Source: a virus (lineage: Duplodnaviria > Caudoviricetes). Taken from it: a DNA stretch of 46,300 nt. The notes below the pieces were generated by a model. That model was given only the letters and a program-made list of their open reading frames with translations, was not told the DNA's origin and did not search any database. Where the stretch lies: positions 1-46,300 of IMG/VR virus record IMGVR_UViG_3300019890_000007. The stretch is one strand, 5' to 3'. This document shows positions 6,676-46,300 of the stretch, piece by piece (within the stretch, counting starts at the first letter, position 1; every line of letters starts with the position of its first letter). The translations under genes and the position numbers were made by a program.

Positions 6676-6910
6676 AGTATTTTTTGAGCGTCTAGCTTAC
6701 TTACTCATGACTGACAAGAGATCCTTAGAGACATCCTTAAATAACACCGTAAATATATCTGATCCAGAGTTTTTACATGTCTTATCTCAATTAAAAGGTA
6801 AGATAAATACACTAGAGCAAGTACTAAATATAGAAGAGTTTCTATATTACGACACAATCCAAGAGGAGATAGACGATGTTCACAGTAGTAGGTCCGAGAA
6901 TCAGAGTTAA
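6614..6910 (+). CDS. hypothetical protein; start may be the downstream Met (MSLETW)
   Basis: ORF track; lies between portal and groES. Confidence 0.6.
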   Translation: MQTHKISKMSLETWVENPISKVFFERLAYLLMTDKRSLETSLNNTVNISDPEFLHVLSQLKGKINTLEQVLNIEEFLYYDTIQEEIDDVHSSRSENQS

Positions 6911-7184
6911 AATTGACGAGAGGAAAGAAGAGAAATCATCAGGTGGTATTATCATGGTAGATCCTAGTAAGCATGTGTGTGATGCGGACATAGGAGAAGT
7001 AGTAGGAATTGGTACTACAGCATATAAGAACATGGATGATGAACAACCTTGGTGCAAAATAGGAGATAAAGTCCTGTTCCAACGCCATGCAGGTAAGGAA
7101 GATCCTACAGATCCAACAGGGTTACACAGATACTTAAAAGATATAGACGTAATTGCAGTAGATGCAGGAGAAAGTGATGAGTAA
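6876..7184 (+). CDS. groES: co-chaperonin GroES-like protein
   Basis: EEKSSGGIIM mobile loop, GEVVGIG, KIGDKVLF and DIDVIAV match Cpn10. Confidence 0.9.
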   Translation: MFTVVGPRIRVKIDERKEEKSSGGIIMVDPSKHVCDADIGEVVGIGTTAYKNMDDEQPWCKIGDKVLFQRHAGKEDPTDPTGLHRYLKDIDVIAVDAGESDE

Positions 7185-10070: not shown

Positions 10071-10087
10071 TCTTAGTGATATAGTTC

Positions 10088-10114
10088 GGTGGGTCTATAA
10101 AACCCACCATTATT
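10088..10114 (+). terminator. stem-loop after the capsid gene, putative terminator
   Basis: GGTGGGT-ctataaa-ACCCACC followed by ATTATT (weak U tract). Confidence 0.55.
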
Positions 10115-10219
10115 GTATAAGTATGGAATAGTGGGTTATTAGACCTACTTCCACCTTACCTATACCTACTTATTAAGAAAATCTAAGGACAGGAGTCCTA
10201 AATAAAAAGGTGATTCAAA

Positions 10220-27974: not shown

Positions 27975-28219
27975 TAGTAAGCATCTCCATTCTCTTTAAT
28001 TTTTAAGTCCTCGTAAGGACGGGCTATACGAGCATAGAACTCTAGTTTAGCTCCTTCTAAAGCACCTATTATATCATTAATGGTTTGATAAGATAATCCT
28101 TTGGTAATACTATATTGAATTAGTGAATGGGTAATAAAGTAATTTAACTCTCCTGCATTTATAGGAACACTAGTAATAGTCTTTAAATCAGAACGCAACT
28201 CTTGTTTAATATATGGCAT
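27974..28219 (-). CDS. conserved phage protein
   Basis: MPYIKQ...GELNY...PYEDLKIKENGD pattern common in phages. Confidence 0.75.
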   Translation of the reverse strand: MPYIKQELRSDLKTITSVPINAGELNYFITHSLIQYSITKGLSYQTINDIIGALEGAKLEFYARIARPYEDLKIKENGDAY

Positions 28220-29046
28220 TATATTACCCTCATTTCACGAAGTCTTTTACGGCAACTCAACCACTTATTAAAATCGTTAAATGACTGAATACCATAACTC
28301 AGACAATCTATGATAGTGTTGATACTCGCACTACATTGCATCAATACACCAAAACTAATCTTTAACCCAAAGTATAGAGGCGCTAATATCAGATAAGGTA
28401 CTATGACAGTAATCTGACTATAAAACGATTGAAAGTAAGACAGATACTTAGTAGTCTTGAACATATTATAATTATTTCTATAAACTTTTGAGTAATTCAA
28501 CTTACTCAAGACTTGTCTGAACCCAGCTTCTAAATTCTGATTGACATAATTAAGGTTGATCAAAGGTCTTGCAATATGAGCTGCTAATCCTGTACCGATT
28601 ATAGCATATAGAATAGGAATAGTCAAGTAAGTCCAGTGTAATTGATACACTAAAATGCTAGAGTACGTAATCAAGACTACTATGTTTCTTATACCGCCTG
28701 ATAACAAGCTTATCTTAAGCTGATTATAAAGGAAGCAATCCTCTTGTATTCGTTGTTGATAATTCTCTACCTTATGGACTTGCTTAAGAGCTTTCCTAGT
28801 CATCCTAGTCCTGAGTATAAGGCTGACATAGTTACCTAGATACTGACCGTACCCACTGACTAGACAAGCAGCTAATGCGGCTAGACTGAAGTAGACTAGA
28901 TATAGACTGAACATCTTGTAGTTATGAGTATTGACAGCCTGCCAGAAACTTTCACGCCATACGCCGATATAGCCTACTAGACCACATTCTATACAGATAG
29001 TCGCAACTAATAGTAATACACTTCGTCTGAGTCTAGGTAAAATCAT
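28219..29046 (-). CDS. SbmA/BacA-like (ABC transmembrane domain type) membrane protein
   Basis: multiple TM helices; W...FW.A, QRIQED, EAGFR (EAA-like) and VPYLILAPLYF...ISFGVLMQ motifs. Confidence 0.8.
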   Translation of the reverse strand: MILPRLRRSVLLLVATICIECGLVGYIGVWRESFWQAVNTHNYKMFSLYLVYFSLAALAACLVSGYGQYLGNYVSLILRTRMTRKALKQVHKVENYQQRIQEDCFLYNQLKISLLSGGIRNIVVLITYSSILVYQLHWTYLTIPILYAIIGTGLAAHIARPLINLNYVNQNLEAGFRQVLSKLNYSKVYRNNYNMFKTTKYLSYFQSFYSQITVIVPYLILAPLYFGLKISFGVLMQCSASINTIIDCLSYGIQSFNDFNKWLSCRKRLREMRVI

Positions 29047-29456: not shown

Positions 29457-30131
29457 CTACTGAATCTCCTGTAGAATTATGACCATTTCACTAAATTTGT
29501 AGTTAGGCACAGATCTCTTGCCTATGCTGGCTAATAAGTCTAAGACATGTTGACTTGAGTTACCGAAGGAAGGACTACCACACTCGTGTGCCTGTTGAGT
29601 CAGATCATCTGCCTCGCCTCTAGCCAGAATCATGCCTACGATCGCGCCATCGTCTCTGGTAATGTCCCCACCACTCATGCCTGCACAGACCTGACCAGTC
29701 ATCGTAATATCATAAGTCATACTATCAAAAAAATCAGATTTCTGTGTTATTCCTGGTAATGCGAGAAAACGTCCTTCTAAATAACCTGCATACCCTTCTT
29801 TATTAATTCTCTGATTACTCTCAGGCAGAGCTAGTCTAGCAACATGCAGAGGATGTGGTACATTGACCTTCAACAAAGACAAATCGTGATGTCTATCATC
29901 CGCTATAATTGTAGCGGGATACCCTTTGTCGTCTACAATGATAACAAGAACACCTATAGGAGACTTAGGATGAGCTACATGATAAGCAGTCGCTATTATA
30001 CCGTCTGATGTGACGGCGAAGCCTGTACCTTGGCTGACTCTGGTATCAGCACGTGCTATATTAGAAAAACCGATTAAGAAAGCTATTCCTATAAGCAACC
30101 CTACTACGAACCCAAAATTACTTTTATTCAT
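29457..30131 (-). CDS. trypsin-like serine protease with signal or anchor sequence
   Basis: TAYHV (His), HDLSLL (Asp), GMSGG (Ser); hydrophobic N-terminus from MNKSNFG. Confidence 0.85.
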   Translation of the reverse strand: MNKSNFGFVVGLLIGIAFLIGFSNIARADTRVSQGTGFAVTSDGIIATAYHVAHPKSPIGVLVIIVDDKGYPATIIADDRHHDLSLLKVNVPHPLHVARLALPESNQRINKEGYAGYLEGRFLALPGITQKSDFFDSMTYDITMTGQVCAGMSGGDITRDDGAIVGMILARGEADDLTQQAHECGSPSFGNSSQHVLDLLASIGKRSVPNYKFSEMVIILQEIQ

Positions 30132-30735
30132 GTCTCTTCCCCTTATGACCTTCGTTATTCTCAAATAACACTTTATAATATCTACCTAGATCGTGTAAAT
30201 AGAGCATAAGACCTTCTGGCTCCATAAAACCTTCGACTAGATGACTTCCGTATTCTATCAATCTATTACGGCAATTGTCAATAACCGCATTAACAAAATC
30301 TAGGGAATACGTACCTAATACAGGTACTATCCCACAACATTCAGGTAGATGAGACCCAGCCCATTTTTGAGTATTAAATAGAGCGAATCTTTTTTCCTTT
30401 AATCCGTAATTACGATTTATACCTTGACCGTACCATTCTCCATAATGACGACCTTCCCCTAATCCTTCTATTAATTCTACTGCATTAGCCATGACAAAGT
30501 CATAGAAATGAAAGTTATGATCTTTCTCAGTCAACCATCTATTACGTCCGCCTGCTCTGATGTGCAGACAGCCTCTCTTGTCTCTCCAGACACATATCTG
30601 ACCATTAGTACCGTCTATCTTCTCTGTTATTGTCACAGTCTCGCGAACAAGACGGCTAATTTTAAGAAACTTTCGGAACTCTACGTCTCCGTAATAATCT
30701 AGTTCTTTTTGTACGTCCAATTCTTCAAGTATCAT
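30124..30735 (-). CDS. RNA ligase (Rnl2-type nucleotidyltransferase)
   Basis: motif I TEKIDGTN; YGEWYG, FALFN, PEGLM and final YYK. Confidence 0.85.
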   Translation of the reverse strand: MILEELDVQKELDYYGDVEFRKFLKISRLVRETVTITEKIDGTNGQICVWRDKRGCLHIRAGGRNRWLTEKDHNFHFYDFVMANAVELIEGLGEGRHYGEWYGQGINRNYGLKEKRFALFNTQKWAGSHLPECCGIVPVLGTYSLDFVNAVIDNCRNRLIEYGSHLVEGFMEPEGLMLYLHDLGRYYKVLFENNEGHKGKRHE

Positions 30736-31900: not shown

Positions 31901-32682
31901 AACTCCCCCTCTTTACGTCTTAGCCATACAAGTTGGCCTCTGTCTGTTAAGATTTCTCGAACTTTTTCTTCGATACTCGTGCTCGAATCTTCCTCGGGCT
32001 CAAGAGTAGATTTAATAACTGAGTGAACAATTCTACGGAACTCGTTTTCGGTAGCAGCTTCTTTGAGTTCTTTTTCAGTTTCTTTTTGCCGCCAACCTTT
32101 TTTAATTCTCGGAATGCCATCTGCTATATCTCCTGTTAGTATTTGTAAATAAAAGTTTCGGAGAGCTTCAATTTCGTCTACGTAATAAATCTCCTTAGTC
32201 ACATAATTCCCGTGCCATCCTGGTATGTTATTAAAATCCTTGTCTACGCTCCAGACTATAGAATTACGTATGTCTGGATGAAACTCATAATTATTCTCTC
32301 GACAATGAGCTATACTACACGCATCATCTGCCTCTTGTCCGTCTACTGTCGTTACTCTGTCATCCAGCATCAAGTAAGATCTTAACTCATCATACCAATA
32401 CGGACGTCTAGCATCTTTCCTATTTGCTTTATATTCCTTGAATATAGCATGTCTAAAATTACCCTTACCTGTTAAAAACCCTCTATACGCTTTCGTATCC
32501 GACACCTGTAGACAATAATCTATCATATGGTTCATATTGTATATAGCATGACTCATAGGCTCTACTTCTAAAATATCCATGTCCCTGTTAAGACTCTCGG
32601 TACTAAAACCACATCTATAAACAATAGGATCTAAGTCTATGATAGCAGTCTTAAAGCTGTATATTTCTCTGGTATTTAACAT
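31891..32682 (-). CDS. 5'-3' exonuclease (T7 gp6-like)
   Basis: IIDLD, YKANR, EADD, SVDKD and GDIADGIP motifs. Confidence 0.92.
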   Translation of the reverse strand: MLNTREIYSFKTAIIDLDPIVYRCGFSTESLNRDMDILEVEPMSHAIYNMNHMIDYCLQVSDTKAYRGFLTGKGNFRHAIFKEYKANRKDARRPYWYDELRSYLMLDDRVTTVDGQEADDACSIAHCRENNYEFHPDIRNSIVWSVDKDFNNIPGWHGNYVTKEIYYVDEIEALRNFYLQILTGDIADGIPRIKKGWRQKETEKELKEAATENEFRRIVHSVIKSTLEPEEDSSTSIEEKVREILTDRGQLVWLRRKEGELWT

Positions 32683-33844
32683 GAAGCTCCTCTGTCTCGC
32701 CCATTTTATCTCTGACTATCTGACTAGTAATGACTACACTGCTTTCCTTGCACTCAAATTGAAAATCAAACAGTACTTTATCAACAATGCTCTTCAATCC
32801 TCGTGCACCTGTTTTCAATTTAAAAGCCTGTCTAGCAATTTCTTCCAGACCAGTGCTACTAAAATGCAATCTAGTCCCGTCCATGAAAAATAAGTGCTCC
32901 ATCTGTTTGACTATACTATCTTCGCCATGTGTCAATATCTCTCTCAAGTCCACTTCTGTCAGATCATCCAAGACAGTCTTAGAAGGAATTCTTCCTATGA
33001 ACTCTGATATTAGACCGAAGGATTCTAAATCTTCAGTAGTAACGTCCTTTAGTCGGTCGTTACCTTCTAACTTGTCTACCTTTCCTCCGAACCCTATCGA
33101 AGTATTATTTAACCTCTTGTTTACTATATCCGACAAGCCATTAAAAGAACCTGCGCAAATAAACAATATGTTACGAGTATTGACAGTGATTCGATTACTC
33201 TCTGCATAAGGATTTCTTCCTAGAGATAGAGACACAGTGCTTCCTTCTAGTATCTTCAATAAACCTCTCTGGACACCACTAGATGAACTAGTATGACTAT
33301 CTGATCCCAGAGCCAATTTATCAATCTCATCAATAAATACTATACCACGTTCCATTTTCCTTACGTCTTTTCCTGATGCAGCATATAAATCTAACAACAC
33401 CGTCTCAGGATCTTCACCTGACCAACCCGTTTGGGTCAGCGTAGTAGCGTCCGCCATGCCTAGAGGCAGAGAAGTAATCTCTGCTAATTCTTTTACCAGG
33501 AGAGTTTTACCCGTCCCTGTACTCCCGATTAACAAGACATTACTCTTGTCTAACTTCTTAGAGCTAGTCAACCGCTTCATATGATTGACTAGAGCTATAG
33601 CTAACGTCTTTCTGGCCGTGTCCTGACCGCGTACGTTCAGTCCTAGTTTAGTATAAATATCTTTAGTAGTATAACCCACCGTCTCTGAGAAGGTCTTAGG
33701 CTTTACTAAAGCTTCTGGATGTCTTTGCAACATTAAGTCAGCACTACAGTCAAGGCAGATCATATAAAGCTTATGCTTATCCTCACCTTCAACGAGTCGT
33801 ACTGACTTTGATTCATGTCTACCACAAAGATCACAACTTGCCAT
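32651..33844 (-). CDS. clpX: ClpX AAA+ unfoldase
   Basis: N-terminal C4 zinc domain, Walker A GSTGTGKT, Walker B IVFIDEIDK, IGF loop, sensor 2 TGARGL. Confidence 0.93.
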   Translation of the reverse strand: MASCDLCGRHESKSVRLVEGEDKHKLYMICLDCSADLMLQRHPEALVKPKTFSETVGYTTKDIYTKLGLNVRGQDTARKTLAIALVNHMKRLTSSKKLDKSNVLLIGSTGTGKTLLVKELAEITSLPLGMADATTLTQTGWSGEDPETVLLDLYAASGKDVRKMERGIVFIDEIDKLALGSDSHTSSSSGVQRGLLKILEGSTVSLSLGRNPYAESNRITVNTRNILFICAGSFNGLSDIVNKRLNNTSIGFGGKVDKLEGNDRLKDVTTEDLESFGLISEFIGRIPSKTVLDDLTEVDLREILTHGEDSIVKQMEHLFFMDGTRLHFSSTGLEEIARQAFKLKTGARGLKSIVDKVLFDFQFECKESSVVITSQIVRDKMGETEELHVKYQRNIQL

Positions 33845-34550: not shown

Positions 34551-35390
34551 TCAAATAACTAATTTTTCCAGCTCTCCCCATGAAACTCCCTTTTTGAACT
34601 CAACTCCAAGTGGCACTCTGATTTCAATATCAAACTTCTCTTTCAAGAATTGTACGACAGAGTATAACTCTTTTTGAATAAAAATGCAAGCGTTTTCTAC
34701 AAATTTGCGTCTACAATCAAACAAAATACTATCATGTATGGTATTGACCATAAGAATCTTATCTCTGTGAGGAAGAAGTTTCCTCCACAATATACCCATT
34801 GCCATAGGATGTAAATCCGCTGTAGCAAATCCTTGAATCTTGTAATTCATTCCTTCTGAGTATTTAAACCCTCCTGGAGTATATATCCTATTCTCAGCGC
34901 AGAAGCTGCTAATCTTTTCGGGGTAATTCCTGAAGAACCACTTTCTGCCTGTCAAGCCTGTATAGAAGCTCTCTAGGCGATTATCTTCGACCTGGTACGC
35001 ATTAGCATCAAGTTCTAGCATAAGAGCGTCAGACCACTCCCTTGAGGCTTTAAACGTGTCCCAGAATACATCATAAGCCTTTTTAGCTATATCTTCAGGT
35101 ATCCCATACTGCTGAACAAGGTTCCAGTCTGTACCGCCGTATATAAGATTGAAGTTGCCCGATTTCAGCATCTGTCTTTCTTCGGTTGAAACCTCAGTCG
35201 CAGGTTTATTCAAGACTCGTCCACCTAGATGCTTGTGAATGTCTATACCTGAGTTAAGTAAATCCTCTAAGACAGGATCTCTAGTATGAGTGACCCACGC
35301 AATAATCTCAAGAGCCGTCCAGTCAGCCTCTATTATTAGACCGTCTGTACCAAATCGGGATGTGAAGTGGTTTTTGACTAATGACGACAT
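34551..35390 (-). CDS. polA: family A DNA polymerase, C-terminal fragment (motifs A, B, C)
   Basis: IEADWTALE, RQMLKSGNFNLIYG, NYKIQG and TIHDSILFD; RBS GGAGG. Confidence 0.93.
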   Translation of the reverse strand: MSSLVKNHFTSRFGTDGLIIEADWTALEIIAWVTHTRDPVLEDLLNSGIDIHKHLGGRVLNKPATEVSTEERQMLKSGNFNLIYGGTDWNLVQQYGIPEDIAKKAYDVFWDTFKASREWSDALMLELDANAYQVEDNRLESFYTGLTGRKWFFRNYPEKISSFCAENRIYTPGGFKYSEGMNYKIQGFATADLHPMAMGILWRKLLPHRDKILMVNTIHDSILFDCRRKFVENACIFIQKELYSVVQFLKEKFDIEIRVPLGVEFKKGVSWGELEKLVI

Positions 35391-35548
35391 TTATTCCTCC
35401 AAGAATAGACTAAACCAGATAATCCTAATAAATCCTTTTCTGTAATTTTAGCAGCTTGATTTAATTTTAACGCGGGACCGTATTCTATACCATCAAAAGT
35501 ATCTCTTATTGCTAAATTTTCCCCGCTATGTTCAAATTTAAATACCGT
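35378..35548 (-). CDS. 56-codon ORF with ACG start inside the second polymerase gap
   Basis: GAGG-TTTAT-ACG then open frame VFKFEHSGENL...CRH-stop. Confidence 0.4.
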   Translation of the reverse strand, partial: TVFKFEHSGENLAIRDTFDGIEYGPALKLNQAAKITEKDLLGLSGLVYSWRNKCRH

Positions 35549-35557
35549 ATAAACCTC

Positions 35558-36013
35558 TTAAGAAGATCTAATTAGATTTTGTAGGTTTGGCTTATTACTT
35601 GAAAGCCTACCTGTATCCGTACTGACATGATTCAGATTCCCGTGAATACAACTGTCGTGATCCATCATGAGCTCTTCAAATCCTATATAGTAAGTGGAAA
35701 TCTCTTTCTGTAAACCCCGCAATTCTAATAGCAACTTAGCCACTTGTCCTGCTGGATGTTTAATTTTCTTAGCTATTCGACTCAGATGCTTATCGTTAAG
35801 ACTTATATTACCCTTGTCTGTCAACATATCTTTAGTAGGCTTGAGTCCCAATCCTTTTATATGACAGCATATCTCTTTCCATTGATATTTAGGCTGTCCT
35901 TTATTCGTGCCTGTCTTATATTCGCCTATTTTAATTTTCGCTCGATCTTTTAGATGCCCGCCAAAGAATAAAACACGTATCTGAGGAATACTATGAGGAT
36001 TAAATTCTATCAT
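35558..36013 (-). CDS. polA: family A DNA polymerase, middle (thumb/palm) fragment
   Basis: FNPHSIPQ, LLLELRGLQK..STY and TDTGRLSSNKPNLQN; RBS AGGAG. Confidence 0.92.
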   Translation of the reverse strand: MIEFNPHSIPQIRVLFFGGHLKDRAKIKIGEYKTGTNKGQPKYQWKEICCHIKGLGLKPTKDMLTDKGNISLNDKHLSRIAKKIKHPAGQVAKLLLELRGLQKEISTYYIGFEELMMDHDSCIHGNLNHVSTDTGRLSSNKPNLQNLIRSS

Positions 36014-36024
36014 TGCCAATACTC

Positions 36025-36189
36025 CTATTCTGAGAACAAAATATCTCTGTATTTTCTAATCGTTTCATTAGACTCTTGTACTGCCCTTATTCCAAACTCT
36101 TTTTCTAAATTATCCCCAAAATCTTCAGTAGCATGCCCCAATAAAGCTTTTAAAATCTGACGTATTTGATCATCTGTTAATTTATTCAT
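36025..36189 (-). CDS. 54-aa hypothetical protein inside the first polymerase gap
   Basis: GGAG-ATAAT-ATG; MNKLTDDQIRQ...FSE. Confidence 0.6.
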   Translation of the reverse strand: MNKLTDDQIRQILKALLGHATEDFGDNLEKEFGIRAVQESNETIRKYRDILFSE

Positions 36190-36190
36190 A

Positions 36191-36907
36191 TTATCTCCAA
36201 TATTGGCTACATAATTTCTGAAATTGTTTAGCTTTATGCTCATATTCTATCTGTAAATCTAACTTATTCTTAGTCAATATCTCCTTATTGACGTACAATC
36301 CATTAGCCTCCATTTCAGTAGTAGAAAGTAACGCGTCCATTTCATGAGCTATAAGACCATACATCCCTGTTAATTTGGCTGACTTTACTTGCTGTAAGGC
36401 TATCTTTTCGGTGTCTAAGACATCGTTCTTTACGTCAAATAACAAATCTTCTATGTCCATATACTGAGTCATGAGTCCTGCTTTGAGTCCTCCCTCAATT
36501 TTTTTAGTTCTTTCAGTACAGCCGTAGATTCTTGTTGCGATGTCGCGTAAAGAGGAATACTTGTGTCTCTGACCAGAGAGGATATACTCTGCCAATTGGG
36601 TGTCCCATATGCGTAATCCGTTTTTAAACGCCTCTTGTAACTCATTATTTCTCCATGTATGAAGTAAATCAAACTTAATGTTATGTCCTATTAAGACGGT
36701 CACACCATGTAACCACCCTGTAGGCATATAGTCTTGTGCGTGTGCGAATAATGTGTAATCTTCACCAGGTATCTTCTCACTATCGGGCGTATATACACGT
36801 TCGTCTGAGTATTTTAACCCGACTGCCAGTATCTCATTAGCCCAAGGACTGCCCTTGCGTCCTTTGAATTCTGTTGATCCCGTTTCCAAATCGAAAACTA
36901 AATACAT
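36191..36907 (-). CDS. polA: family A DNA polymerase, N-terminal 3'-5' exonuclease fragment
   Basis: FDLETG, GHNIKFD, WDTQLAEY, KNDV and EMEANGLYVN motifs. Confidence 0.92.
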   Translation of the reverse strand: MYLVFDLETGSTEFKGRKGSPWANEILAVGLKYSDERVYTPDSEKIPGEDYTLFAHAQDYMPTGWLHGVTVLIGHNIKFDLLHTWRNNELQEAFKNGLRIWDTQLAEYILSGQRHKYSSLRDIATRIYGCTERTKKIEGGLKAGLMTQYMDIEDLLFDVKNDVLDTEKIALQQVKSAKLTGMYGLIAHEMDALLSTTEMEANGLYVNKEILTKNKLDLQIEYEHKAKQFQKLCSQYWR

Positions 36908-39900: not shown

Positions 39901-40164
39901 CTAAACAAAAGTAAATTTGTCAGTTATTTCAAATCTAGGTTCGTACTCTACATACGTAGTAGTCTTAGAATCCCTTGCTTCTATTAACCTGAAGAACTTA
40001 TTCTCTATTCGGTCTCTTAACTGATTCAATTTAGACTCGACTAGACATCTGCTCATGCTAGTATAAACATCTTTAGACTCTACGAACATATTATTGTCAT
40101 CTAGTTCTGTTAGTTTAAGACAAAAACCTTCGTGACTATCCTCTATAGAAGCTTTAAACTTCAT
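39901..40164 (-). CDS. hypothetical protein
   Basis: ORF track; RBS GAGGAG. Confidence 0.65.
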   Translation of the reverse strand: MKFKASIEDSHEGFCLKLTELDDNNMFVESKDVYTSMSRCLVESKLNQLRDRIENKFFRLIEARDSKTTTYVEYEPRFEITDKFTFV

Positions 40165-40166
40165 AA

Positions 40167-40388
40167 TTACTCCTCAATGACAGTCTTAGACAACACATTT
40201 TTAAGATACTCCTCGATACGAGCATCTTCCTTTCTCATTTTATGTAAAACAGCTAAAGCTTCCTTTTTTGTATTAGGATCTATAATATAAGAAGAGTCTT
40301 CCCAAGCATCAAAAAGTCCTAATAAACCTACACGCTTAGTCTCAAGTATATAATCCCCTAGACCATTTCGTATGAGTCGGTATTTCAT
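40167..40388 (-). CDS. hypothetical protein, paralog of 24176-24394
   Basis: MKYRLIRNGLGDY; RBS GGGGAG. Confidence 0.7.
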   Translation of the reverse strand: MKYRLIRNGLGDYILETKRVGLLGLFDAWEDSSYIIDPNTKKEALAVLHKMRKEDARIEEYLKNVLSKTVIEE

Positions 40389-40543
40389 ATCACTCCCCTT
40401 CTTTAATAGCAGCTAGTATATCATCTATATACCTATCCGATCTAGCCATGAATCCAGATTGTGGGACATTGATATAAGATTCTAGCTCTTTTATACGCTC
40501 TCTGAGCATCCATAACACTTCTTTCAAATCTAATTCATTCATA

Positions 40544-40732
40544 CTATCCCCAAAACTCATTAGTAGTCCAATATCCCAATCTCATTCTATATCCGCCTTG
40601 TTCTTGCTGTCTCAGCATATCATCAATGTTCTGTCTTGTCAAGTCTCTCTGCTGTTCTATTTTCGCAATGTCCTTAGTTCTAGTGACTATACCTTTTAAT
40701 TCTTGTACACGACCTGCAAAGGAATTACCCAT
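40544..40732 (-). CDS. hypothetical protein
   Basis: ORF track; RBS GAGGTG. Confidence 0.6.
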   Translation of the reverse strand: MGNSFAGRVQELKGIVTRTKDIAKIEQQRDLTRQNIDDMLRQQEQGGYRMRLGYWTTNEFWG

Positions 40733-40878
40733 TTATCACCTCTATCTTATTTGATTCATTGGTATTAATAGGAACGTTTCTACGTAATTCTCTAATGAAT
40801 TCAAGACCATCTTTCTTGATAGTTTCCTCAAGAATATGGTGTCTATAATGAGACTGACTATAATACCTAGATGCTTGA

Positions 40879-41076
40879 TTACTCATCCTGTGACTCCCAA
40901 ATAAGAGCTATAAAATAGATTATAGCAGTAAGCCACAATATGAAAAGCGTAGCCATCCCACTATAACATAATACTATCAATGAGGCAGGATTAAGGAAAA
41001 CATAAGCTGCCCAGCCTATACCTGCAAGTATAGTACAGATACACATTACTACAAGCGCTCTTAAATGTATATTCAT
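40879..41076 (-). CDS. small two-TM membrane protein
   Basis: hydrophobic; ATGA overlap with the upstream ORF. Confidence 0.65.
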   Translation of the reverse strand: MNIHLRALVVMCICTILAGIGWAAYVFLNPASLIVLCYSGMATLFILWLTAIIYFIALIWESQDE

Positions 41077-41243
41077 AATATCACCGTATATTTAACATTA
41101 GATAAATACTCTTTAAGAGCCTTTTTCAGTCTGCGTACAAAAGATCCCTTGCCTTTCTTAGGTATGTGTACTTTAGCTTTAGGTGCATTCTTATTGAGTC
41201 TACGTGACTTTAGTCGTTTAGGAATCACTTTATATTTACTCAT
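41073..41243 (-). CDS. ArfA-like (alternative ribosome rescue factor) basic peptide
   Basis: KVHIPKKGKGSFVRR resembles the ArfA KKGKGSY.RK motif; RBS AGGAGA before MSKYKV. Confidence 0.6.
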   Translation of the reverse strand: MSKYKVIPKRLKSRRLNKNAPKAKVHIPKKGKGSFVRRLKKALKEYLSNVKYTVIL

Positions 41244-41305
41244 AGCTTGTCTCCTAGTAAGAGGACGCTCTAACATTACAAATAAAGCTGGATTAAGTAA
41301 CATAA

Positions 41306-41887
41306 TCACCTCTTAGTCAATATCTCATCAATTAACCCATAATCCTTAGCTTCTTCTGCTGTCATGAAGTTATCTCTGTCTGTATCCCTTTCTATGACGT
41401 ATAAAGGCTGCCCTGTCAATTCCGATAGATGTCTGTTCAACCTGTCTTTCAACTTAGCCATATGAGCAGCTTGAATAGCTATGTCAGAAGCCTGTCCATG
41501 TGACCCACCAGATGGTTGATGTATCATGATCTCAGTATTAGGAAGTGCGAACCTCTTACCCTTGGCACCTGCTGCTAATAGGAATGACCCCATACTGCAC
41601 GCATGCCCAGATGCTATGGTGACTACATCAGGTCTGATGAACTGCATAGTATCATAGATAGCCATACCAGCAGTGATGTGTCCACCTGGCGAGTTAATGT
41701 ACAATGATATATCCTTGTCAGGATTCTCAGACTCAAGGAATAATAACTGAGCTGTGACCAGATGAGACGTGACTTCATCAATACCGCCATTAATGAATAT
41801 GATTCGATCTTTTAACAGACGAGAGAATATATCATATGATCTCTCACCCTTAGCTGATTGCTCAACTACTATCGGTACTAGACTCAT
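41306..41887 (-). CDS. clpP: ATP-dependent Clp protease proteolytic subunit
   Basis: [37 protein letters not shown] and [11 protein letters not shown]. Confidence 0.97.
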
Positions 41888-41893
41888 AAGACC

Positions 41894-42082
41894 TCACTTT
41901 ACTACGTTAATTGGAGGAACAAAACCTACATAAGGACTGCCTTGTTCCATAATAGGCAAGACTGGATAGGAATCAGCCTCTGATGTAGCACACCCAGTCA
42001 ACTGCATTATTAGAAGAGCTGTAGCGACTATCAGTATTAATGTGATAGCATAGGCATACTTATCAGGATCGTTTGTACTCAT
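41894..42082 (-). CDS. putative small lipoprotein
   Basis: hydrophobic stretch ending in lipobox LTGC. Confidence 0.6.
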   Translation of the reverse strand: MSTNDPDKYAYAITLILIVATALLIMQLTGCATSEADSYPVLPIMEQGSPYVGFVPPINVVK

Positions 42083-42264
42083 CGTATACCTTCCCATGAT
42101 TGATTAGTCATTATCTGATGTATCTCTTCTGATGTTAATGTCTGAACAGGGCGTCTGTGATCTACATAATACCCCTTTCTGACTAATTCTCTTGCGTGGA
42201 CTCCACTGTGATCCGTGAATTGTACCCAATGCCCTGTGACCTCATTCTGCACCCAGTACTTCAT
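42079..42264 (-). CDS. hypothetical early protein
   Basis: GGAGGATTT-ATG leader after a promoter; MKYWVQNE. Confidence 0.7.
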   Translation of the reverse strand: MKYWVQNEVTGHWVQFTDHSGVHARELVRKGYYVDHRRPVQTLTSEEIHQIMTNQSWEGIR

Positions 42265-42284
42265 AAATCCTCCATTACATCCTA

Positions 42285-42312
42285 GGTATAGCACATTATC
42301 AGAAAATGTCAA
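42285..42312 (-). promoter_or_regulatory. sigma70-type promoter
   Basis: TTGACA-N11-TGTGC-TATACC. Confidence 0.7.
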
Positions 42313-42455
42313 GTGTACCCATTACCGTCTAATACGTCTAATGCCTGTGCAGCCAGTAACTCAGGTTCCGCATCACCTTCCATAATAAGATTTAATAGTG
42401 ACTTGACATCCTTTATTTGCCTGTCTGTCAAGATCTGTATGCTGATGTCTGCCAT
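42309..42455 (-). CDS. hypothetical early protein
   Basis: GGGGATTT-ATG leader; MADISIQ. Confidence 0.65.
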   Translation of the reverse strand: MADISIQILTDRQIKDVKSLLNLIMEGDAEPELLAAQALDVLDGNGYT

Positions 42456-42462
42456 AAATCCC

Positions 42463-42639
42463 CTATGATTTCCAATATAAACGAAGTAATAAAATATATA
42501 CCAAAACACTCACTACACCTGCTAGACCATATGAAGTAGAGCCCTGTGTTACGAGCTCAAGAATAGCAGATCCTGCAAAGGCAGACATCCCTATTATAGA
42601 TAAGAATATTAATACTAAATATAATGTTTGTTTATGCAT
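42463..42639 (-). CDS. small two-TM early protein
   Basis: ACAGGAGGATTT-ATG leader; MHKQTLY. Confidence 0.7.
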   Translation of the reverse strand: MHKQTLYLVLIFLSIIGMSAFAGSAILELVTQGSTSYGLAGVVSVLVYILLLRLYWKS

Positions 42640-42659
42640 AAATCCTCCTGTGTCTGCTA

Positions 42660-42687
42660 ATCTTAACACATTCTAGCTATTTGTCAA
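42660..42687 (-). promoter_or_regulatory. sigma70-type promoter
   Basis: TTGACA-N11-TGTGT-TAAGAT. Confidence 0.7.
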
Positions 42688-42946
42688 TAGTCTTTACGAT
42701 ATATTTATCTACTACTACCTTAGCATTATAAGCTGTTGATGCATAAGAACTTATCTGAACTACAGCACATCCCTGGAGCAATAACATACTGATCATCACT
42801 GGTAAAAGAGCGTTCATTAGTCATCTCCTCTGTCGGTCATCATCGCTAATTCAGCGTGTCTAGCGTCATAGTTGACGTCTACAGACACGAGCTTGACATA
42901 CTTCATTACTCTCTCTCCCATAAGATTAGTAATAGACTCATCAAAT

Positions 42947-43129
42947 TTAAGATTGATTTGCATATGCTCCCTCATTCTTAGAAGTCTTACTAGGTTTATT
43001 GACGGAAGAAAGCCATTCCTCAATCCTGTCTGATTTCTTAAAGATACCTTTTAAATCGGACAGACTGATACCATTCCCTATTAGTAAAAGCTGTCTTAAT
43101 TTCTTGAATTCTAATCGAGTCAGTTTCAT
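42947..43129 (-). CDS. hypothetical early protein
   Basis: AGGAG before MKLTRLEF. Confidence 0.55.
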   Translation of the reverse strand: MKLTRLEFKKLRQLLLIGNGISLSDLKGIFKKSDRIEEWLSSVNKPSKTSKNEGAYANQS

Positions 43130-43136
43130 AAGTCTC

Positions 43137-43268
43137 CTATTCAAAGTCTACTTGCTGTTCGTTTAATAATTCCTTAATTATAAAAGACTTCTTAATCTCT
43201 TGATCGTACTCATCATCTTTCTGAGTCTTGGTTTGTTCGAGCCATTTATCAATCTCTTTAATGTTCAT
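43137..43268 (-). CDS. 43-aa first gene of the leftward arm
   Basis: ACAGGAGGATTT-ATG; MNIKEIDKWLEQ...DFE. Confidence 0.65.
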   Translation of the reverse strand: MNIKEIDKWLEQTKTQKDDEYDQEIKKSFIIKELLNEQQVDFE

Positions 43269-43288
43269 AAATCCTCCTGTATGTATCA

Positions 43289-43316
43289 AGAATAGCACAT
43301 CTCTGGAATATGTCAA
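43289..43316 (-). promoter_or_regulatory. leftward sigma70-type promoter
   Basis: TTGACA-N11-TGTGC-TATTCT. Confidence 0.75.
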
Positions 43317-43370
43317 GTCTTTGTCAAGTATTTTTAAAAATATATATTATTAATAATATTTAATATACAC

Positions 43371-43398
43371 TTGACAAATCAGGATTATGTGCTATAGT
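43371..43398 (+). promoter_or_regulatory. rightward sigma70-type promoter 1
   Basis: TTGACA-N11-TGTGC-TATAGT. Confidence 0.8.
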
Positions 43399-43400
43399 TA

Positions 43401-43642
43401 TTAGACCATTAAGAGAGGATGGCTTGGGATAGATAAACGTGTTTATGTGGCGTGCACTGGCTTTCATAGTAGATGACGAATGTGACGGTACTCCTATCGT
43501 CAGAGAAGGGTTCAGGAATCCCTAGGATTAAAACCTACACGATAAGATCAGCACAGGAGTGCTAGAGAGTGTGGTATATCCACAATGCTCTCAAGAGTAT
43601 CTATGTCTAAATTTATGAGTCGGTGACAGATTGTCTCCGACT
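43401..43642 (+). ncRNA. candidate structured ncRNA A (unknown family)
   Basis: follows a promoter; no long ORF; end-to-end pairing plus serial hairpins. Confidence 0.55.
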
Positions 43643-43661
43643 AAAAAGATTAGAATATGAC

Positions 43662-43689
43662 TTGACAATTGATATGTATGTGCTATAGT
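43662..43689 (+). promoter_or_regulatory. rightward sigma70-type promoter 2
   Basis: TTGACA-N11-TGTGC-TATAGT. Confidence 0.8.
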
Positions 43690-43737
43690 AAGGATGCTAG
43701 AGCTCGAAAAGACAGCTAGGCAGCACATATAAAGCTT

Positions 43738-43964
43738 CTACCTATTCTGATCGAAGAGCGTCTGATTGATAATACGTGGCAAGATAGGACTTGCATGAGC
43801 AACCTATCCCATATCAGCCATACGTAATGCAGCGATGCGAGGTGTGAAAGTTGCTCATTAGTCGTAAGATTAAAAGTAGCACATCATGCTAACCAGACAG
43901 GTGCGGGTGAGTGAGGATTGGAAATCAGACAAGTCCCGCTAGCACTAATTATTAAGATAGGTAG
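43738..43964 (+). ncRNA. candidate pseudoknotted ncRNA B (unknown family)
   Basis: closing stem CTACCTAT/ATAGGTAG and several 6-9-bp long-range complementarities. Confidence 0.65.
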
Positions 43965-43980
43965 TTGATAGGAGATTGAT

Positions 43981-44214
43981 ATGACTTTATTAATAGCGAG
44001 TCTAGGCCTAATAGGTGCAGTCTCAGGGTTCACGAGTGGTTATTTATTCTACGGATACAGACAGTCTCTATTATTGAAGAATATACTCAAAAGTTATAAA
44101 GCATTGGGTTATGAGGTATTAGACGAAATTAATCCTCATACTCAAGCTAGGACTATCAAGATAAGTGAGAAGCCTGAGCAAGAGCCTCTTCATCTTAATA
44201 AGGTATTACACTAA
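43981..44214 (+). CDS. small membrane-anchored protein
   Basis: RBS AGGAG; N-terminal TM segment. Confidence 0.7.
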   Translation: MTLLIASLGLIGAVSGFTSGYLFYGYRQSLLLKNILKSYKALGYEVLDEINPHTQARTIKISEKPEQEPLHLNKVLH

Positions 44215-44408
44215 TGCGCTTACACATGAGTTTCTATGATTGGTATAGGTGGACTGTGTGCCCACCTCTCTATCCTACTGATGAAGAGATTCAGAATACT
44301 CTAGAAAGCTCTGTAAATAGAGATTTTCATAAGAACTTAGTCAGAAGATATGACTTATATGTACAAGATATAGTTAAAGAATTGAATAAACCTGAGAGAG
44401 AACTTTGA
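44214..44408 (+). CDS. hypothetical protein
   Basis: TAATG coupling to the upstream gene. Confidence 0.6.
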   Translation: MRLHMSFYDWYRWTVCPPLYPTDEEIQNTLESSVNRDFHKNLVRRYDLYVQDIVKELNKPEREL

Positions 44409-44507
44409 GTTTGACTCTACATACCCTCGGGCTATCAAAGAATGGGTAGAAGAAACCCTTACTAAAGACGACTCGTTAAATAAATCTTAAATATTTATTA
44501 AAAAGAC

Positions 44508-44535
44508 TTGACAAATAGAGAATCTGTGCTATAAT
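44508..44535 (+). promoter_or_regulatory. rightward sigma70-type promoter 3, consensus hexamers
   Basis: TTGACA-N11-TGTGC-TATAAT. Confidence 0.85.
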
Positions 44536-44634
44536 ACATAGATCATACAGACGAATGTCACAACAGGAAGAAATTCTTTTCTAAATACCTGGATTGTATT
44601 GATAATGAAAGAAGCTGTCAGATAATGACAGGAT

Positions 44635-44856
44635 TATACAGATTTTAAATCCTACTTAATGTGAAACCTGACGTCATGCGTCAGTCAGCCACTGGCAAGC
44701 AGTAGCTTAAGCGGGATACTGATCCTAAGAGTCTGACAAGGAGTCTATCGAGAGATACAACATCTCTACGACTTACCAGACCTAGATCGCTGAGACTCGT
44801 TTGAAAGCTGTTGATCCTTCTCAGCATTAGCCCTTAAATGGGTATTTTATTGTATA
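44635..44856 (+). ncRNA. candidate structured ncRNA C in the tRNA leader (unknown family)
   Basis: closing TATACA/TGTATA stem enclosing about five hairpins; no long ORF. Confidence 0.55.
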
Positions 44857-44897
44857 GAGTCTCACGCATGCTATTGAACCGTGAGACAAATTGTTAT

Positions 44898-44971
44898 TGC
44901 GAGATGGTGAAATGGTATCATTCGAGGCTCATAACCTCAGGTCACGGGTTCAAATCCCGTTCTCGCTTCCA
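44898..44971 (+). tRNA. tRNA with CAT anticodon (Met-type)
   Basis: acceptor TGCGAGA/TCTCGCT, D arm GTGA/TCAT, anticodon loop CTCATAA, T arm ACGGG-TTCAAAT-CCCGT, encoded CCA. Confidence 0.93.
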
Positions 44972-45131
44972 AATCAATCAGATAGACCACCTACGCCATT
45001 GCATACCGTCTAATAAACGGCTGGTCTAAGCTAATATGGCGCACCATTGGTATCAAGCTCAGTTGATCAGGAAGATACTAGACTTGACGGGCAGCAGAAT
45101 CCTGGGGTATTGAGTACTGCATGGACATGAG

Positions 45132-45413
45132 ATGAGCAAGAGTCATAAAAAGGTCAGGTACTCTCATAATTGCTCAGTCATTCACGGAGCTCAGACTAAC
45201 TACAACTTGGCTGAGAGACGTAAACGAAGACGTGACATTAAGAGAATCTTAAGACACGCTAGCCCTGATAAAGATATAATATTCCCGCCAGACAGACAGT
45301 ACGCTAATCCATGGTACAGCCCTGGTGATGGTGGGCACATAGTCTCGGATGAGACAAGAGATTGGTTGATAAGACAAGGCATATATAGATACGACAGATA
45401 CATGGCTAAATAA
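45132..45413 (+). CDS. basic Arg/Lys-rich hypothetical protein
   Basis: ORF track; MSKSHKK...RRKRRR...NPW..PGDG. Confidence 0.65.
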   Translation: MSKSHKKVRYSHNCSVIHGAQTNYNLAERRKRRRDIKRILRHASPDKDIIFPPDRQYANPWYSPGDGGHIVSDETRDWLIRQGIYRYDRYMAK

Positions 45414-45446
45414 GACAGATAACTTAACTAAGACACAAGAGGTATT

Positions 45447-45602
45447 ATGGAATTATTATCATTAGCAACATTAGTAGGATTAATCGTAGGCGTATTACTG
45501 GGTGATCATCTGAAAGCTTTAGTATTAGCTCTAGTAGTCAAAGCACATAACATATTACACGCTCTGTTCACGTCTACTCCTCCAGCTCCTCCAGCAGCAT
45601 AA
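45447..45602 (+). CDS. 51-aa membrane peptide
   Basis: RBS GAGG; MELLSLATLVGLIVGVLLG...PPAPPAA. Confidence 0.6.
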   Translation: MELLSLATLVGLIVGVLLGDHLKALVLALVVKAHNILHALFTSTPPAPPAA

Positions 45603-45603
45603 T

Positions 45604-45732
45604 ATGATCAGATTAGGTCACATGTTCATCCGAGACACTGAAGGTAACCTGATCCGACGTAGACTATTGTTCATTAGTCTACTGTCTTGGTCTTGGATGA
45701 TAGAGTTATATAGACAGAGATACAAGTTATAG
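45604..45732 (+). CDS. hypothetical 42-aa protein
   Basis: ATG 1 nt after the previous stop; MIRLGHMF... Confidence 0.35.
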   Translation: MIRLGHMFIRDTEGNLIRRRLLFISLLSWSWMIELYRQRYKL

Positions 45733-46232
45733 GACACCATACAGTCTAGTGCGATTTACGTCAGTGCTTATAGAGACTGATCATAGGATCGACAATAGGA
45801 TATTAAACAGTTAATGTGGTATTGATTCTACTGCCTATATACGTATAGAGCCTTGGACGAAGGATCAATAGAGCTCTTAGGGAAAGAGCATACCAGTCTC
45901 ACCTACTGCTACCTCTCTGGCATAGCTTGTCGAGAGACAGAAACAGGTAACTGATAAATACTAGATGAGGAACTACTCAAGGCTGAGTAGAGTGCTAAGA
46001 CATAGGACACGGGTATCTCAAGAGATATACCACTTAGCTATGGATAAACATGGACTATTGATATACATTAAGATAACATTAAGTCTTATACTAATCAATC
46101 ATATGAGCGTGTTCATACTATATACTCATATAATGTGTCGTGAGTTAGTCATCAATCATCACTCTCTCTCGTGCTATAGAATACTGGCGTCAAGACACAT
46201 TACTATATAGGAGCATAAGCAGTCTCTCTATA

Positions 46233-46290
46233 TAGACACCCCAGGGGGGGGGGTTTTAATACTCTGGTGACGTTAATACCTAGACACCCC
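46233..46290. repeat. TAGACACCCC direct repeat flanking a G10 tract
   Basis: copies at 46233-46242 and 46281-46290; G run at 46244-46253. Confidence 0.8.
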
Positions 46291-46300
46291 TAGAATGTGT

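Follow-up and report, generated by a model that had tools for sequence, protein, structure and literature searches.

The right-hand end of the genome of an uncultured podovirus-like phage (Caudoviricetes) carries a genuine island of probable RNA genes. Strong promoters of the sigma70 type are present there with neither an immediately following ribosome-binding site (RBS) nor a terminator, a tRNA gene follows the last of them, the predicted folds of two blocks (A and E) are conserved in related phages and modules are exchanged between these relatives. The blocks are probably structured noncoding RNAs (ncRNAs), and the modules are probably uncatalogued and mobile within the lineage. Relatives carry other folded modules at this position, and the island is therefore likely to be a swappable ncRNA cassette.

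Genome context and extent of the island

The window analysed here is the whole contig of 46.3 kb. Packaging, head and tail genes occupy the + strand (627-23535), and replication and early genes run on the - strand from 43316 down to 23639. Its terL is 32-37% identical to the best phage records among the matches listed. Closer genomes are represented by their proteins only: P0067, with 83% terL identity, is on a 30-kb contig, and P0069, P0070 and P0003 are on contigs of 47-50 kb. ClpX, ClpP, an RNA ligase and an SbmA/BacA-like protein are also encoded.

Several of these genes deserve a brief description. ClpX carries a zinc finger (32651-33844) and ClpP is host-like (41306-41887); a second ClpP-like protease (627-1343) and a GroES-like protein (6876-7184) are present as well. 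Relatives L215 and L219 appear to have similar ATPases, and ClpP similarity gave no pointer to the host. The SbmA/BacA-like membrane transporter (28219-29046) and the RNA ligase (30124-30735) are both encoded on the - strand of this 46-kb podophage. The family A DNA polymerase (34551-36907, - strand) is divided over three ORFs. One of the two breaks contains a 72-aa ORF and the other a gap of 167 nt, and no intron model matches. A 13-nt unit in two and a half tandem copies (~499-535) lies in the gap before the protease gene, and a 149-nt gap with hairpins (10071-10219) lies 3' of the major capsid gene.

An earlier reading of the sequence without database searches (the sequence-only reading) had described about 1 kb within positions 43371-45041 as non-coding, in a genome where genes otherwise abut or overlap. 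The RBS-free blocks A, B and C are real (Table 1), but 428 of the 1671 nt belong to two ORFs between B and C, and intergenic gaps of 150-330 nt are also present elsewhere in the genome. Judging from codon scores and substitutions these two ORFs are probably coding; the 77-aa ORF has no homologue besides itself and the 64-aa ORF gave no usable Atlas match.

Table 1. Features of the island and of the corresponding loci in related phages (positions are those of the window unless a locus is named)
Feature	Position	Strand	Description
Promoter PA	43371-43398	+	sigma70 type, extended -10; back to back with leftward early promoter 43316
Block A	43404-43642	+	predicted multibranch RNA; fold, homologue at L372:2918-3050, compensatory pair
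Promoter PB	43662-43689	+	sigma70 type, extended -10
Block B	43696-43965	+	folded RNA (predicted), or else a long leader for the 77-aa ORF; fold z -2.2
77-aa orphan ORF	43981-44214	+	has RBS; codon score 0.30; 5/9 listed substitutions synonymous
64-aa orphan ORF	44214-44408	+	coupled to the 77-aa ORF; codon score 0.11; 4/10 listed substitutions synonymous
Promoter PC	44508-44535	+	sigma70 type, 12/12 consensus, extended -10
Block C	44541-44887	+	predicted structured RNA and pre-tRNA leader; fold z -2.9
tRNA-Met(CAT)	44898-44971	+	ARAGORN, Rfam; cloverleaf, encoded CCA, U1-U72 mismatch
Segment D	44972-45125	+	ORF-free spacer after the tRNA; z +1.1, without structure support
93-aa basic protein	45132-45413	+	unnamed family; 5 small homologues, 32-43% identity, among 9 hits
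Block E	45808-46045	+	predicted structured RNA, 7-bp closing helix; z -1.3; beyond the range of the sequence-only reading
G-rich tract	46240-46256	+	loosely defined counterpart upstream of terL in relatives
CUC/AGA stem RNA	L218:2612-2740, L219:7890-8049, L220:262-388, L222:601-845, L223:8333-8440, L224:8433-8546		
CUC/AGA stem RNA, further loci	L373, L374, L375, L376, L378, L379		
p1 RNA	L001:6478-6775 (-), L372:184-548, L297:905-1152		behind the first rightward promoter, at the position of A

Promoters and transcripts

The three rightward promoters proposed by the sequence-only reading are confirmed. All of them contain the extended -10 TG, they score 12/12 (44508) or 11/12 (43371 and 43662) against the consensus and they are the top three among 30 consensus matches in 40000-46300. 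The term near-identical, which had been applied to them, is appropriate for the hexamers that they have in common but not for the promoters as a whole, which are only 68-70% identical across 37 nt. Leftward promoters of the same type at 43316, 42687 and 42312 have an RBS that follows the -10 box at a distance of 10-11 nt. By contrast, 571, 280 and >700 nt separate the rightward promoters at 43371, 43662 and 44508, respectively, from the first RBS-led ORF. The contrast drawn between the two directions thus holds for these three leftward promoters, but not for a fourth one (33920), which lacks an immediate RBS.

On the + strand of the island no intrinsic terminator was found after any of the blocks, nor does a U-tract follow their 3' hairpins. 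The promoters therefore probably yield nested read-through transcripts, from which the blocks are probably cut rather than being separate transcription units.

The blocks had been portrayed as structured and rich in complementary segments. Their folding is modest (z = -1.8 for A, -2.2 for B and -2.9 for C), and 7.4% of 95 background windows of 120 nt also score below z -2. Both of the short words that were said to be common to A and C are there, at the positions claimed for them, but relatedness of A and C on this basis was rejected. The sharing is at chance level in 1000 shuffles (a shared 9-mer or longer in 30.7%, the bipartite word in 18.2% and both in 6.7%), and two of the seven letters of CACTGGC in A are altered in a close relative. 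The broader proposal of structured ncRNAs transcribed by the host polymerase finds comparative support for A, for parts of C and for the locus as a whole.

Conservation of block A

The predicted fold of A contains a long-range helix (43424-35/43597-609), a hairpin (43483-502), a GAGAA junction, a stem (43508-36) under an AAUCC/GGAUU hairpin cap and a 3' hairpin (43618-42). The 3' two-thirds of the block match a segment of relative L372 that is located in a syntenic position 1.3 kb upstream of terL. This match, which consists of two sequences only, has an E-value of 0.016 in 1.1 Mb and a score of 13.8 bits that is reached in none of 25 shuffles, and 97 of the 184 alignment columns are identical. 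The two sequences can adopt a common predicted fold comprising the hairpin, the GAGAA junction, an internal-loop stem with the AAUCC/GGAUU cap and the 3' hairpin. Two helices have diverged in sequence with their pairing kept, one hairpin and the GAGAA junction show no differences, and two G-U pairs are gained in the 3' hairpin. A 28-aa GTG ORF within A has a codon score of 0.16, like real early genes, which counts against the RNA reading; no RBS precedes the small ORFs in the blocks.

Variation between near-identical phages was examined as well. Parts of the stretch are present in ten sequencing runs, none of them an RNA data set among those listed; two possible sources of the window were set aside and six of the other eight were compared. 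In A-C, the 18 listed substitutions touch seven confident pairs, of which five are kept (one through a compensatory change, 43486/43499 in A in run X4, and four as G-U) and two are broken. The expected number of broken pairs is 5.0 (P = 0.05, borderline), in a test that mixes contigs of different runs and leaves out 19 unlisted rows and two indel-linked changes; the partners of both broken pairs are in contigs with further unlisted differences. The tolerance of G-U pairs points to folding of the + strand in single-stranded form.

Blocks B and C and the tRNA

The variants in B weakly support its predicted structure: three of four listed substitutions retain the pair as G-U, while one breaks it. 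Single-base deletions are present in B in several of the close-relative runs.

Block C is predicted to form a 5' three-way junction (44541-603), a hairpin (44615-31) and a 3' hairpin (44859-87). In run X8, 11 of 30 letters differ at the hairpin 44615-31, with none of the differences, as counted by eye, in the 10-nt stem (P = 0.003). A short contig in five of the six compared runs matches C at 44548-85 with six mismatches and then diverges, and the flanks of the diverged continuation are able to form the same closing helix; as structural evidence this distant match is a lead only. Pattern scans of sequence collections did not recover this distant element, and scans for the 5' domain of C were discarded after yielding nothing or chance matches (0 of 192 kept helices).

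The tRNA that was said to end the island is a tRNA-Met(CAT), found at 44898-44971 by both ARAGORN and Rfam. Initiator tRNA-fMet is distinguished by a 1:72 mismatch and three G-C pairs adjoining the anticodon loop; the U1-U72 mismatch is present here, but only two G-C pairs are found beside the anticodon loop. Contig L297 (47.8 kb) has the layout of the window and, upstream of terL, a similar tRNA-Met. It is binned in a Gallionella assembly, although binning alone is no proof of the host.

Within segment D, at 44983-45047, helices 44983-89/45022-28 and 44994-99/45036-41 would cross each other, and ACCA follows them. These could correspond to a pseudoknot or a tRNA-like end, a model that folding energy does not support.

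Block E and the right-hand end

No promoter of its own was found for block E. It matches L380:4046-4285 with a score of 13.2 bits (0/25 shuffles as high), and the two share an identical 7-bp closing helix with a shifted hairpin. The matching segment of L380 sits behind the first promoter, whereas E in the window does not. Likewise, the gene after the module of A in L372 is holin-like, whereas in the window A is followed by a new promoter and has no gene behind it. The different neighbours of the A and E modules in L372 and L380 compared with the window indicate that the modules move independently of the downstream genes.

In 16 of the 22 relatives examined, a counterpart of the G-rich tract beyond E lies at a distance of 1.8-4.1 kb upstream of terL, and three of their contigs end at most 160 nt from it; the definition of this tract is loose and post hoc, and seven such tracts are present on the + strand of the window. 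Judged from these positions, the tract near 46240 may mark the physical genome end, in which case the island would lie in terminal DNA.

The same locus across the lineage

The loci of relatives were gathered through alignments of helicase and terL homologues, among the matches listed; single-protein scans of viral contigs with terL or helicase gave no relatives. The search for synteny that had been suggested earlier is productive, with the homologue of A in L372 and other promoter-led modules at the same spot elsewhere. At the island position, relatives have ORF-free segments, many of which lie behind the same type of promoter, with different contents. Seven sequence families are distinguished including those of A and E, and two of them were tested for covariation; these two (CUC/AGA and p1) are modules of the relatives and not blocks of the window itself.

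One of these families, from a sister clade, is a long stem RNA with a CUC/AGA internal loop, for which 12 loci are listed. It is promoter-led, carries a variable payload and precedes the holin-like gene at a distance of ~1.3-2 kb from terL, on its upstream side. A model built from four loci recovered the other eight, and 15 of 23 pairs show a two-sided change in a model-fitted alignment of 13 rows, one of which is a reverse-strand duplicate. With filters off, neither of the models R1 and R2 matches 43371-46300, and segment D was accordingly rejected as a member of this family. Only a short look-alike of the core is present in the window, at 45053-45090. A similar stem was seen by eye in L377, which the models do not match.

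In the p1 RNA (250-360 nt) the closing helix covaries and a hairpin loop is conserved; among three sequences, two-sided changes affect 5 of 19 pairs. Next to the closing helix is a CAGG/CCUG helix reminiscent of the 5' junction in block C, but the p1 profile has no match in the window. Two further modules are common to L216 and L372 and one to L221 and L380. In the latter pair, a 220-nt structured segment is shared (L221:2293-2525 and L380:7479-7702; 168/224 columns identical) in which many helices are possible in both. L216 and L001 contain a shorter RNA that is related to that of L372 but lacks the module that L372 has in common with A.

Profiles of the relatives' modules p1, p2, p3, core and f6 gave no match in the window. 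Conversely, B, C and D have no homologue in the related loci (~3.1 Mb for B and most of C), and the best nhmmer scores for B and most of C are at the level of shuffles. The core motif of L216/L372 was dropped as a candidate after its one match proved to be inside coding-like sequence, as was a look-alike in L227.

Database searches and known systems

When blocks A-E are compared with Rfam 15, only the tRNA reaches threshold; five other matches (E-values of 0.13-9.6, 12.7-20.5 bits) are far below their gathering scores. In 11 related loci, what Rfam picks up is limited to a tRNA, two weak matches and, in L218, a manA-like match below threshold. The manA-like element (L218:13246-13438; 35 bits, E-value 1.9e-05, gathering score 55) is far from the island locus in that genome. 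The blocks match no Rfam family of CRISPR repeats, tracrRNAs or antitoxins, which counts against the decoy reading. ARAGORN and Rfam find no tmRNA, although the phage encodes ClpX and ClpP, and Rfam gives no match to a group I/II intron or a known small ribozyme.

A blastn search of the island, A+B, C, E, the L372 RNA and the L224 RNA against 50,697 phage records gave only the tRNA or chance matches, and none of A, B and C has a stretch longer than 12 nt that is complementary to another part of the phage genome. A catalogue of about 10,000 candidate viral structured RNAs (10,006 models) is available (PMC10690425). In the portion of its supplementary tables consulted, six motifs and six data-set identifiers gave no match, and its models may contain these families. 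Term searches, which cannot exclude such a report, retrieved no literature on the RNAs of this phage group.

The rnaC and rnaD genes of T4, which encode the species 1 and 2 RNAs, are located in a tRNA cluster. They resemble the blocks as adjacent small ncRNAs of a lytic phage with no assigned function (PMC12685909). The blocks of the window differ in being 240-350 nt in length, in having their own sigma70 promoters and in being swapped between relatives. RacrIF1 and rAcrIIA1 are also promoter-led phage ncRNAs, and these act as protein decoys (PMC10651486; 10.64898/2026.06.03.729762); they mimic CRISPR repeats or guide RNA, in contrast to the multibranched blocks without an Rfam repeat or tracrRNA match. 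Structured RNAs of the manA (RF01745), GOLLD and ROOL families occur in phages (PMC2864571), including the manA-like element of L218, but no block of the window matches their models even at E-values up to 10. Finally, the Pseudomonas phages LUZ24 and PAK_P3 are lytic, depend on the host polymerase and have 5'UTR-derived or processed ncRNA candidates (10.1101/2023.10.13.562163). For the RNAs of T4, as for those of LUZ24 and PAK_P3, the phage collection gave no sequence match to the island.

Possible function

We tentatively favour, at somewhat less than an even chance, an exchangeable cassette of folded modules and a tRNA behind strong host-type promoters, the stable ncRNAs of which would serve as protein-binding decoys in early takeover. 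Fast turnover at a fixed strong-promoter locus and the lack of long stretches complementary to phage genes would fit such a protein-binding role in counter-defence or takeover, as would the accompanying tRNA and RNA ligase. Phage decoy RNAs are described in PMC10651486, 10.64898/2026.06.03.729762 and PMC3475682, and PMC10264068 contains the proposal that phage tRNAs and ligases counter tRNA nucleases, together with the statement that tRNA-fMet is for the most part not encoded by phages in cases where its anticodon is targeted.

In the mechanism that we envisage, host RNA polymerase would make the nested read-through transcripts early in infection, and host nucleases would free A, B, C, E and the tRNA, with RNase P acting at the tRNA and others elsewhere. 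The 3' hairpins of A and C may shield the released RNAs. By analogy with known decoys, these RNAs could titrate host RNA-binding proteins of defence or regulation, and by a similar analogy the tRNA and the phage RNA ligase could make up for tRNA cleavage. Host-specific conflict would then be the reason why modules turn over between relatives. A more far-reaching version, which we regard as doubtful, is that the island corresponds, at the RNA level, to a hotspot of anti-defence genes. At this terminal locus, transcribed early, at least seven uncatalogued structured-RNA families would be shuffled between genomes as protein-binding effectors that act against host immunity.

Alternative readings

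The main rival holds that the modules are cis-acting leaders or processing scaffolds: B would gate translation of the 77-aa ORF, C would be a pre-tRNA leader and the modules would tune read-through into downstream or late genes. As a general account this seems rather unlikely to us, while cis-leader roles for B and C individually are plausible. The closing helix of B (43738-46/43956-64) ends just 5' of the RBS, pairing is possible between a CCTAT(C/T) segment and a copy of GATAGG that overlaps this RBS, and C adjoins the tRNA. In most members of the CUC/AGA family the RNA reaches the RBS of the next gene or stops close to it, terminators are missing, and 5'UTR-derived ncRNA candidates are reported to be common in lytic phages (10.1101/2023.10.13.562163). 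What argues against leaders as the general explanation is that the next element behind A is a promoter and not a gene, and that the A and E modules move independently of downstream genes.

It is improbable that the palindromes act as DNA, as terminus, packaging or origin signals, with the promoters near the genome end serving as polymerase sinks or to make primers. Such signals would suit the location of the island between the divergence point and the conserved G-tract near contig ends, as well as the turning point of the cumulative GC skew near 43000. The antisense strand of A folds as well as the sense strand (z -2.5 versus -2.0), which counts against the RNA reading. On the other hand, substitutions repeatedly make or remove G-U pairs, which is workable on the + strand only, conservation extends to multibranch folds and long-range closing helices, and the modules vary between relatives, unlike core replication signals.

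Slightly less probable still are self-assembling or catalytic RNAs, either a manA-like cage or new ribozymes that cut the precursor. The precursor needs processing, a manA-like match exists in L218 and manA is described as a 60-mer cage (10.64898/2026.07.01.735769); none of the blocks matches manA or a known ribozyme, however, and the L218 element is remote from the island locus.

We consider neutral spacer DNA or unrecognized small peptides very improbable. The modest z-scores, the absence of homologues for B and most of C, and the positive codon scores of the 28-aa ORF in A and of a 49-aa minus-strand ORF in B would be compatible with them, but the folds conserved with L372 and L380, the compensatory and loop-only changes, the single-base deletions in B and the small ORFs without an RBS argue otherwise.

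The CsrB/RsmXYZ sponges are characterized by many GGA motifs in loops. That the island is a CsrA/RsmA sponge presenting GGA loops is the least probable explanation: one hairpin of A has an unpaired AGGA loop (43555-58) and CAGGA, a motif picked after looking, occurs four times in A-C against 1.0 expected (P = 0.026), but GGA is at expectation (13 versus 13.0) with most sites predicted to be paired, ANGGA is depleted (1 versus 3.9) and there is no Rfam Csr/Rsm match.

Significance

We return to the reading of the island as a cassette of exchangeable ncRNAs. Structured ncRNAs are already known in lytic phages, and what differs here is probably the presence of swappable, uncatalogued modules at a fixed locus. 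To our knowledge, few phage ncRNAs have known mechanisms, and it was through resemblance to host RNAs that the known decoys were discovered. The CUC/AGA stem RNA, with its 12 loci and strong covariation, is ready for description as a family, whatever its function. The fixed slot for exchangeable folded RNAs in this lineage offers several compact, promoter-defined candidates that could be produced in vitro or in laboratory Escherichia coli for partner screens.
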